A stretch of DNA of 64,000 bases from Enterobacteria phage ECP2307: the sequence record PP461118.1. One strand, given 5' to 3'. Of this stretch, positions 7,314 to 7,760 are shown in pieces; position 1 is the stretch's first letter, and every line of letters begins with the position of its first letter. Below the pieces are notes generated by a model, which ran no database searches, was not told where the DNA came from, and worked only from the letters and a program-made list of their open reading frames with translations. The translations under genes and the position numbers were made by a program.

Positions 7314-7361
7314 TTTTGATTCTCCAGTTTAGGAAGTGGGCTTGATTGCCCGTCTGATGCA

Positions 7362-7390
7362 AATATTAGATAACCATACTCAAAGAGTCA
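7362..7390 (-). promoter_or_regulatory. candidate sigma70-type promoter for the leftward early array (TTGACT-17-TAATAT)
   Basis: Read on minus strand about 45 nt upstream of the first early gene. Confidence 0.4.
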
Positions 7391-7556
7391 ATAGGAATTT
7401 TAAAAATATTTTTGCAAAAATTGTAATGAAACGGGCGCACGCGACTACCACAAAACAGAACTACAATCAAGAATTATTTTTCAATCCGCTACAAATTTTT
7501 CTGTTGACTTTTCTTTTCAGATATGGTAGCCTTGTGAGAAATGGCGACATCCCCAT

Positions 7557-7760
7557 CTGCACCCACCTACCTGCACAATTCGAAAATGATTTTTCTTGCC
7601 CGACCTGAGCGGGGTCTGCACGTTTTGAAAATAAAAAAGCTCTTTGGAGATTATCTGCACAGTTTGAAAATGAATTTTCTCTTTGGAGTTCAAAATTTTC
7701 TCTACAGATTTCTGTCCAGAACTCTACCTGCACAATCCTGAAATGAAAAAGCCCTCCTTA
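7557..7760. repeat. tandem degenerate repeats with core CTGCAC(A)..TTNGAAAATGA, about 40 bp period, 4-5 copies
   Basis: Direct reading; track ORFs here (7467..7733, 7541..7741) overlap the repeats and look spurious. Confidence 0.55.

Follow-up and report, generated by a model that had tools for sequence, protein, structure and literature searches.

Felixounavirus is a genus of Felix O1-like myoviruses in the subfamily Ounavirinae, whose genomes have a size of about 88 kb. We describe here a short repeat array in a phage of this genus, Enterobacteria phage ECP2307, of which a stretch of 64,000 nucleotides was analysed (the window; sequence record PP461118.1). Many Felixounavirus genomes match positions 6500 to 9000 of this window with an identity of 94-97%. 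The array consists of four direct copies of a degenerate motif and resides in a 505-bp gap (7314-7819) whose flanking genes are both found on the minus strand in the list of open reading frames (ORFs). In minus-strand order, in which all features are given, the gap contains a terminator, the four repeats, a variable tract with an A/T-rich block, a promoter and a leader that ends at the ATG at 7313. The array is a real cis-element that is found throughout the subfamily and that is not described in any of the papers or GenBank records examined.

The closest described counterparts of the region downstream of the array are the PeSL cassettes of the T4-type phages RB49 and phi1. According to passages of the papers describing them (PMC2839356, PMC4122927), these consist of a strong promoter resembling those of sigma-70, preceded by an A/T-rich tract, of a G/C stem-loop and of a Shine-Dalgarno sequence with the start codon of a small gene of unknown function, where the stem-loop is placed between the -35 and -10 elements, over the -10 element or just after it. 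The same passages report promoter and terminator activity measured for the PeSLs of RB49 and phi1; for ECP2307 these activities are predicted. The design is shared by the promoter at position 7391 of the window and by about 18 cassettes downstream of it, which display the features that characterize PeSLs as far as these are described in the passages (PMC2839356, PMC4122927), although in Ounavirinae instead of T4-type phages, and which like PeSLs constitute the best-conserved DNA between distant relatives. The four-copy motif does not share these features. PeSLs contain a promoter and a stem-loop, whereas the motif has neither, and the searched passages of the PeSL papers mention no counterpart of it (PMC2839356, PMC4122927).

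The cassettes precede about 18 small genes, which are located on the minus strand between approximately 1000 and 7400 of the window, each following one of two repeated elements (such as those at 7114-7018, 6653-6548, 6293-6199 and 4618-4527). In the first type, which carries TTTACA-17-TAAAGT, a hairpin with the arms GGGGCTTA...TAAGCCCC spans the spacer and the -10 element, and in the second, TTGACA-17-TAAATT is followed by a leader hairpin containing GGGGAGGGAATGACCTTCCCC. Both types end in a shared GGAG leader and both align to intergenic DNA of Kolesnikvirus.

For the repeats themselves, several other classes of repeated DNA offer a comparison. Iteron arrays, with regularly spaced repeats, are found in the lambda origin (ori), in oriE of T4 and in the origins of the plasmids P1 and R6K. 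With these, the array has in common a motif of about 20 bp that is repeated in the same orientation in non-coding DNA next to an A/T-rich neighbour, is unique in the genome and is kept in relatives. It differs by the lack of an adjacent initiator gene, by its tolerance of disruption in the related phage Bas63, by an irregular spacing of 37-75 bp that varies by genus and by the presence of a better origin candidate at 36.7 kb. The centromere sopC of the F plasmid contains 12 repeats of 43 bp with an inverted repeat as core. Its resemblance to the array lies in the tandem organization of units of about 40 bp with one short core each, which would be able to nucleate a DNA-binding protein silencing neighbouring genes. 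In contrast to the inverted repeat of sopC, the motif of the array is asymmetric, no gene of the ParB/SopB type is found in the annotation of Bas63, and partition is not an evident requirement of a virulent phage. Finally, rrnB P1 is a strong sigma-70 promoter with a UP element and Fis sites. Similar to this promoter, the ECP2307 locus has a UP-like tract close to the consensus (about -40 to -57), preceded over several hundred base pairs by further A/T-rich DNA that is conserved and by repeated sites, but these sites reach to about -395 without helical phasing, and their motif does not fit Fis, IHF, CRP, Fur or MarA (compared by eye, with DnaA and IHF sites being scanned).

A further relationship concerns Untranslated Repeat Region 3, the injection stop signal (iss), of phage T5 (bioRxiv 10.1101/866236), which likewise is located about 8% from the genome end at the border of small early host-takeover genes and which is also more conserved than many neighbouring ORFs. 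The iss of T5 extends over about 1.2 kb, contains inverted repeats, palindromes and paired DnaA boxes and is part of a 10-kb terminal repeat (bioRxiv 10.1101/866236), whereas the array encompasses 190 bp with four direct repeats, has no DnaA boxes in this genus and belongs to a genome with a terminal repeat of about 0.6 kb. The likeness of the array to iteron, operator and centromere arrays is one of form only.

The repeat array and its conservation

The array covers about 190 bp and is composed of four direct minus-strand copies of nWWWWTCATTTTCAAnnnGTGCAGGTAG, a motif of about 27 nucleotides, which on the plus strand reads CTGCAC...GAAAATGA. Copy 1 (CTTTTTCATTTCAGGATTGTGCAGGTAGAGT, 7721-7751), which was found in all relatives examined, is followed by copy 2 (AAAATTCATTTTCAAACTGTGCAGATAATCT, 7648-7678), copy 3 (CTTTTTTATTTTCAAAACGTGCAGACCCCGC, 7609-7639) and copy 4 (AAAAATCATTTTCGAATTGTGCAGGTAGGTG, 7564-7594), all on the minus strand, at start-to-start spacings of 73, 39 and 45 bp. 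The sequence-only reading had noticed four to five degenerate copies of a unit with a CTGCAC core upstream of the promoter, which is borne out by the four direct copies and a stray extra GTGCAG after copy 4 (7562-7557, minus strand). In a position weight matrix that was built from the copies of three genera, including those of the window itself, the four copies score 39.4, 36.7, 29.1 and 36.0 bits, and among all other sites of the 64 kb, whichever the strand, the highest score is 10.7 bits. A search with the pattern ATTTTCRAANNGTGCAG, allowing two mismatches, retrieves copies 2-4 only, with 0.63 matches expected by chance. The shorter sequence TGTGCAG is not enriched (16 occurrences compared to 11.5 expected). 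Tandem Repeats Finder reports nothing at the array, as its copies are degenerate and unevenly spaced. The motif is asymmetric and shows no dyad symmetry, and no periodicity of AA/TT or of A/T at 10-11 bp (10.5 bp) rises above background, which rules out an intrinsic curved-DNA element. The ORFs that overlap the repeats had been regarded as spurious, and this view is confirmed by the comparison with relatives, where their start, stop and frame shift and where indels of 2 and 4 nucleotides separate the genera. No ORF in the array is conserved across relatives, and tRNA genes were not found.

The gap is syntenic in the genera Felixounavirus, Suspvirus, Mooglevirus and Kolesnikvirus, with the same macro-domain gene as neighbour of the array in all four, and except for a few three-copy variants it contains four copies in the same orientation. 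The idea that the repeats are functional, for which the sequence-only reading had named absence from close relatives as the opposing observation, is upheld by their presence in these four genera. The spacings amount to 73-75, 39-41 and 43-45 bp in Felixounavirus, Suspvirus and Mooglevirus and to 37, 37 and 39 bp in Kolesnikvirus, whose core reads GTGCATAG in place of the GTGCAGGTAG of the others. With mean pairwise identities of 0.78-0.90, the motif cores exceed the intervening spacers (0.60-0.77), the highest value of 0.90 being found in the core of copy 3. The conservation is most pronounced in the comparison with the Erwinia phage phiEa21-4, where a match to the array of 76% over 104 nucleotides (E 8e-16) is the best nucleotide match within 3.5 kb, above that of any coding stretch, and where the sequence that joins copies 3 and 4, AGGTCGGGCAAGAAAAATCATTTTCGAATTGTGCA, is nearly the same.

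A departure from this organization is found in the lineage of BPS17L1 (locus L114, 1440-1950) and the loci L022 and L046, which carry three copies at spacings of 75 and 45 bp, with copy 1 still fused to the terminator tail, together with a different allele of the upstream gene. In BPS17L1 and L022, both of which were read, the 3' end of the macro-domain gene differs, the terminator stem is re-paired and the long spacer contains a 7-bp palindrome, ATCTGTA...TACAGAT. In light of these features, the array coincides with a mosaic junction.

Beyond the subfamily, the array appears to have no counterpart. A scan of IMG/VR with a two-copy pattern detects it only in contigs of the size of Ounavirinae genomes, with four odd matches being coding repeats, and a single-copy pattern returns scattered one-off matches, which we have taken as chance. 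No counterpart was found in 5,426 E. coli genomes, where only noise with E = 8 was returned, and when one genome of each bacterial species was scanned, matches were limited to metagenome-assembled or other genomes of unrelated taxa, none of them Enterobacterales. Four metagenome contigs (L120, L172, L117 and L157) contain a tandem unit of about 39 bp with GTTGTACATTTTCTGTTTGTGCAG, which is similar to the phage motif in core and period; we judge this likeness to be the chance resemblance of a satellite-like repeat. The array is listed neither in the genome paper of Felix O1, where repeats are reported between genes 15-21 and within genes 76-77, nor in the record of wV8, where direct repeats are annotated elsewhere in the stretch.

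The terminator, the early promoter and the adjoining genes

On its upstream side, the array borders on the last gene of a long operon, which is contained in the ORF list (7820-8605, minus strand) and codes for a macro-domain protein (Tk.4-like 'phosphatase'; Pfam Macro, E 2e-7; phrog_335 'phosphatase'). This gene is followed by a rho-independent terminator identified in a terminator scan (7738-7790, minus strand), with a 17-bp stem at 7790-7749 and the tail CTTTTTCATTTC. Its predicted RNA fold of -25.8 kcal/mol (z = -6.8) shows a stable G/C-containing hairpin that leads directly into a U-tract with the tail CUUUUUCAUUUC. The element is annotated as terminator in the records of XTG1, wV8 and ASO1A and is listed under the match in Barry and AYO145A. 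Between BPS17L1 and L022, one stem position has changed from G-C to A-U on both sides, a compensatory exchange noted when reading the sequences by eye, and one-sided changes between G-U and G-C are found in the alignment fold (alifold). It is an ordinary and well-supported terminator. The T-rich half of copy 1 coincides with the U-tract of this terminator, and in every lineage copy 1 either adjoins the terminator tail or overlaps with it, also in that of BPS17L1 and L022 with its different stem and upstream-gene allele.

Downstream of the array, the variable tract (7524-7563, minus strand) is with a mean pairwise identity of 0.53 the least conserved segment of the region. It contains a C-rich run, which is G-rich on the plus strand, in most relatives and a different allele in ECP2307. 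The run comprises about 40 nucleotides on the sense strand, corresponding to several runs of G3-6 on the plus strand, and is present in most relatives of all four genera, as illustrated by Felix O1, wV8, SUSP1 and phiEa21-4; it is unusual for a genome with 38% GC. An unrelated allele of the same length is found in the window and in roughly one third of the sampled Felixounavirus sequences. In LMP34, whose genome is partial, the sequence breaks off within this tract, just after copy 4. The adjacent A/T-rich block (AAAAGTCAACAGAAAAATTTGTAGCGGATTGAAAAATAATTCTTGA, 7466-7523, minus strand) is conserved and near-invariant in Felixounavirus, Suspvirus and Mooglevirus, but not in Kolesnikvirus.

The early promoter (7363-7391, minus strand), of the sigma-70 type, was defined by a promoter scan and by its conservation and consists of TTGACT at 7391-7386, a 17-nucleotide spacer and TAATAT at 7368-7363, with a match at 9 of 12 consensus positions. 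It had already been recognized in the sequence-only reading, where it was placed about 45 nucleotides upstream of the first early gene, which agrees with the 49 nucleotides between the end of the -10 element and the ATG at 7313. Since the scan finds 8 sites in 2 kb compared to 5.0 +/- 2.2 expected, the consensus match alone is not significant. What makes the promoter convincing is the conservation of its hexamers while their spacer varies: among 30 distinct Ounavirinae sequences, the mean pairwise identity is 0.96 in the -35 element and 0.81 in the -10 element but only 0.52 in the intervening spacer, and TTGAC and the TA of the -10 element are invariant in all 30. The orthologous site is annotated as promoter in phage ASO1A. 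Directly upstream of the -35 element, the tract AAAAATATTTTTAAAATT (7396-7413, minus strand) has a mean pairwise identity of 0.85 in the same 30 sequences and the A/T-rich composition at about -40 to -60 that is typical of UP elements, for which we have used the generally known consensus. We thus consider the promoter as ordinary, of the host sigma-70 type and well supported, and predict that it is used by the host polymerase. Transcription would probably start near the 5' end of a predicted leader of about 43 nucleotides (7314-7356, minus strand), which folds into a hairpin GGGC...GCCC (-11.1 kcal/mol, z = -2.8) and contains the Shine-Dalgarno sequence GGAG at 7325-7322 ahead of the ATG at 7313. 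Leaders of this design also precede the other cassettes, and the recurrence of promoter and leader before about 18 downstream genes lends the promoter additional support. The first gene of the early cassettes (7107-7313, minus strand) was identified from the ORF list and its phrog match; it encodes a product of 68 amino acids that belongs to phrog_5293 and has no assigned function. In wV8 and ASO1A, a different gene is found in this position while the array is retained, and the first early gene is therefore not tied to the repeats.

Two additional promoter-like elements are located in this part of the gap, one on the minus strand (7470-7442, TTGATT-17-TAGTCG, which in Suspvirus and Mooglevirus reads TTGACT-17-TAGTTG or TATTCG) and one on the plus strand (7505-7534, TTGACT-17-TAGCCT, with TAAGAG or TAATAG in relatives). 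Both have a conserved -35 element with a TA exactly 17 nucleotides on. Their activity is doubtful because most lack the final T of the -10 element.

The position of the array within the genome is defined by Pr103Blw, whose 581-bp direct terminal repeat, annotated from PhageTerm data, aligns to positions 1-592 of the window with 86% identity. As this alignment stops exactly at position 1, the start of the window corresponds to the physical end of the genome. The array is thus located about 7.6 kb from the genome end, or about 8.6% of an 88-kb genome, and the early genes are transcribed toward this end. That the array itself would be a genome terminus or terminal repeat, as suspected from the 608-bp repeat of UAB_Phi87 and the end of LMP34, was rejected on the basis of the Pr103Blw repeat, which maps about 7 kb away. 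The distance to the genome end, the overlap of the terminator with copy 1 and the PeSL-like cassettes had not been part of the sequence-only reading. Further upstream, a protein of 77 amino acids (phrog_6082, 8802-9032, minus strand) shows a sub-threshold Pfam match to the Gabija anti-defence protein Gad1 (E = 0.037, 14 bits compared to a cut-off of 27).

Possible protein binding and alternative functions of the repeats

The conservation of the array resides in its primary sequence and not in base pairing, as judged from alifold and fold z-scores. With a probability of about 0.4, we suggest that the four copies are sites at which one sequence-specific protein binds to double-stranded DNA and that this protein would act on transcription at the boundary between the two gene blocks. 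In the mechanism that we propose, a minus-strand operon of about 29 kb, containing the nrd genes, rIIA/B, pseT and the macro-domain gene, starts at the divergent region near 36.7 kb and would stop at the strong intrinsic terminator, the latter step being well supported. About 390 bp further on, and equally well supported, the host sigma-70 polymerase would restart at TTGACT-17-TAATAT with its UP-like tract, which would be the first of about 18 successive units of promoter, hairpin, leader and gene running to the genome end. The repeats would be bound by a single sequence-specific protein, encoded either by the phage or its host, which would most likely serve as roadblock or insulator that reinforces termination and bars read-through from the terminal early module. 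Less likely, it would activate or shut off the first early promoter from upstream. Operator sites had been among the functions offered in the sequence-only reading; of this proposal, the notion of protein-binding DNA stays the best account of the repeats, whereas a location over the promoter does not, with the sites being found about 208-395 bp upstream of the predicted start.

Several observations weigh against protein binding. No Pfam DNA-binding domain was detected in the eight flanking proteins, and by this measure no DNA-binding gene adjoins the array. The only annotated regulator, bas63_0035 with a helix-turn-helix of the Cro/C1 type, was dismissed as candidate, being distant and without link to the motif, as was the first downstream gene, since wV8 and ASO1A retain the array but have another gene in this position. 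Among host proteins, DnaA boxes and IHF sites were scanned in the copies, and an inspection by eye for Fis, CRP, Fur, MarA/SoxS, OmpR, NtrC/sigma-54, sigma-32, sigma-E, LexA, EcoKI, ops and boxA provided partial matches that were never found in all copies and genera. Spacings of 37-45 bp amount to about 3.5-4.3 turns and are therefore out of helical phase, and since dyad, phase and A/T periodicity are all absent, a cooperative complex of proteins on the same face of the DNA is not indicated. At about 208-395 bp upstream of the predicted start, the sites would serve only the first of about 18 promoters, and this location excludes them as classical operator of the entire early array. It is also conceivable that part of the conservation stems from recombination and homogenisation among regulatory cassettes.

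A further point against this interpretation concerns the related phage Bas63 (JohannRWettstein, MZ501086), which shows 92.7% identity over the query and contains the array at 64138-64311. Here, a spurious annotated ORF, bas63_0096 (64142-64297), spans copies 1-3, and it is included as 'gene 96' in PhageMaP, a method in which a short barcode is inserted at Cas9 cut sites inside each annotated gene. Its fitness scores, which are +0.65, +0.62 and +0.24 for host S17 and +0.93, +0.83 and +0.65 in the sheet of a second host, are in the range of dispensable genes, compared to -0.8 to -2.3 for the primase/helicase gene. Since insertions are tolerated in Bas63, the array is not essential on laboratory E. 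coli, with the insertions being located to the level of the ORF, and three intact copies might suffice in the insertion mutants. The array is thus dispensable and contributes little under laboratory conditions, and its function is accessory rather than essential.

Among the alternatives, it is possible, though unlikely, that the array is a relic, originating from a tandem duplication of the terminator tail and kept by low divergence, by gene conversion and, as with PeSL cassettes, by serving as recombination homology at a mosaic boundary, without any specific factor being bound. Such an origin would account for the identity of the T-rich half of the motif with the U-tract of the terminator, for the homogenised spacers within arrays, where ACTCCAAAG is found three times in Suspvirus and Mooglevirus and a sequence similar to GGTCTGGCAAG in Kolesnikvirus, for the three-copy variants and the mosaic junction, for the 73-bp gap, which by eye looks like a decayed fifth copy, and for the tolerance of insertions. 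It would not account for cores that are more conserved than their spacers and that are kept in four genera between which the surrounding non-coding DNA and a large part of the coding DNA can no longer be aligned, nor for the maintenance of copy number and orientation across genera. In addition, the GTGCAG half is part of no terminator tail, and no other terminator of the 64 kb has the motif.

We regard it as improbable that the array is an iteron-type or auxiliary origin of replication, where an initiator would bind the repeats and open the A/T-rich DNA that separates them from the promoter, possibly with the help of transcription. The four repeats of the same orientation are indeed found beside A/T-rich DNA and adjoining strong promoters, with the oriE of T4 and the lambda ori as phage precedents, and in most relatives a G-rich plus-strand tract just after TTGACT, noted by eye, could anchor an R-loop. 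In Kolesnikvirus (L004, L009 and L010 from Erwinia and Hafnia phages; minus strand, about 1460-1600), each of the four copies contains an 8/9 match to a DnaA box in one orientation, which reads CTATGCACA or TTATGCACG. However, no match to the DnaA box (TTWTNCACA) is found in the copies of Felixounavirus, Suspvirus and Mooglevirus, ECP2307 itself has no G-rich tract, no initiator gene is adjacent, the spacing differs between genera, and the tolerance of insertions in Bas63 is at odds with an element required in cis. The region 7371-7520 is in the lowest 3-5% of the window in GC content, but 20 other regions are lower, with the minimum at 36.7 kb. There, at 36668-36894, the AT-richest spot of the window (20% GC) coincides with a change in the sign of the GC skew beside the DNA polymerase gene and with short repeats of its own. 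This divergent intergenic region contains, besides its AT-richest 120 bp, three times the sequence CTTTTAAGTAAC and a 20-nucleotide inverted repeat. Judged from its composition, it is the better candidate for an origin, with putative divergent early promoters.

A function of the array as RNA is similarly doubtful. In this case, read-through or antisense transcripts would carry four copies of UCAUUUUCAAnnnGUGCAGGUAG, which would be cleaved by a nuclease or bound by a protein for processing, decay or as a sponge. The conservation of the motif as primary sequence in an unstructured A/U-rich context is compatible with this possibility, and antisense RNA could be driven by the conserved plus-strand TTGACT at 7505-7510 with TAGCCT (TAAGAG or TAATAG in relatives) 17 nucleotides on, as noted by eye. 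Against it stands the position of the array directly behind a terminator of -25.8 kcal/mol, where sense transcription should be low, a candidate antisense -10 element that in most relatives is without its final T and falls short of the scan criteria, and the absence of a terminator-like 3' end on the plus strand. A search of Rfam at E-values up to 10 provided no match in the array, its fold does not differ from shuffled sequences (z = +0.36 and +0.37 on the two strands) and alifold detects no two-sided covariation in 24 sequences. The small non-coding RNA proposed in the sequence-only reading is thus not substantiated, being without Rfam match, without a fold better than shuffled, without compensatory pairs and beginning in the U-tract of a terminator.

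There is also a slight chance that the array, as insulator, roadblock or pause site of DNA entry bound by a phage or host protein, sets the inner limit of the 7.6-kb terminal host-takeover module and separates its expression or its entry from the remaining genome. If true, it would be the Felix O1-family counterpart of the boundary of first-step transfer in T5, built from a different motif.

Stacked promoters, as a further proposal of the sequence-only reading, have lost their basis, with no copy containing an acceptable pair of -35 and -10 elements on either strand and the motif being unique to the locus. A sigma-70 scan finds nothing in the minus-strand copies and on the plus strand a single TTGAAA-18-GATTAT, whose -10 element is GATTAC in relatives and thus not conserved. 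It is hardly more plausible that the copies are phage-specific promoters for a host polymerase modified by a factor, in analogy to the MotA-dependent middle promoters of T4. Here, TCATTTTC as a -30 box would span about -32 to -25 if TAGAGT, TAATCT or TAGGTT were the -10 element (as placed by eye), the TA after GTGCAGG would start this element, with several copies reading TAnnnT in the respective position, and all copies would point toward the early array. We would then expect primary 5' ends 5-10 nucleotides downstream of the GTGCAGGTAnnnT segments, after each GTGCAGGTA. The -10-like hexamer is not conserved, reading CCCCGC in copy 3 and TGAAAT, TCTAGA and TGCAGT in Suspvirus and lacking the final T in most copies of Kolesnikvirus, and since the motif is found nowhere else in the 64 kb (10.7 compared to 29-39 bits), it does not define a phage-specific class of promoters.

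Least probable is a signal for DNA transactions at the edge of the terminal module, resembling the injection stop of T5, whereby the terminal 7.6 kb would enter and be expressed first: the start of the window is the physical genome end, the array at about 8.6% has its parallel in the first-step-transfer DNA of T5, which amounts to 7.9% of the genome and has a conserved region of untranslated repeats at its end, and only small early cassettes lie between array and end, but two-step injection was never reported for Felix O1-like phages in the literature examined (homologues of A1/A2 were not searched for), the DnaA boxes and large inverted repeats of T5 are absent and insertions into the array are tolerated.

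Significance for the Felix O1-like phages

Typing, biocontrol and therapy all make wide use of Felix O1-like phages. The timing of their transcription is described as unknown in the genome paper of Felix O1, and a literature search for transcriptomics in Ounavirinae returned nothing relevant. In this respect, the locus offers three handles, a strong terminator, a textbook early promoter heading a block of cassettes and a cis-element that is found throughout the subfamily. Being dispensable in the laboratory and located beside a strong promoter, the array also provides a practical insertion site for phage engineering.

Collectively, our analysis describes a modest cis-element that is absent from the descriptions in the sources consulted and whose function is a prediction from sequence comparison. 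If the repeats are inert, they would clearly exemplify the concerted evolution of tandem repeats at a mosaic boundary. If they are bound by a protein, this protein would be the first identified regulator of the switch from early to later expression or of the insulation of modules in the subfamily.

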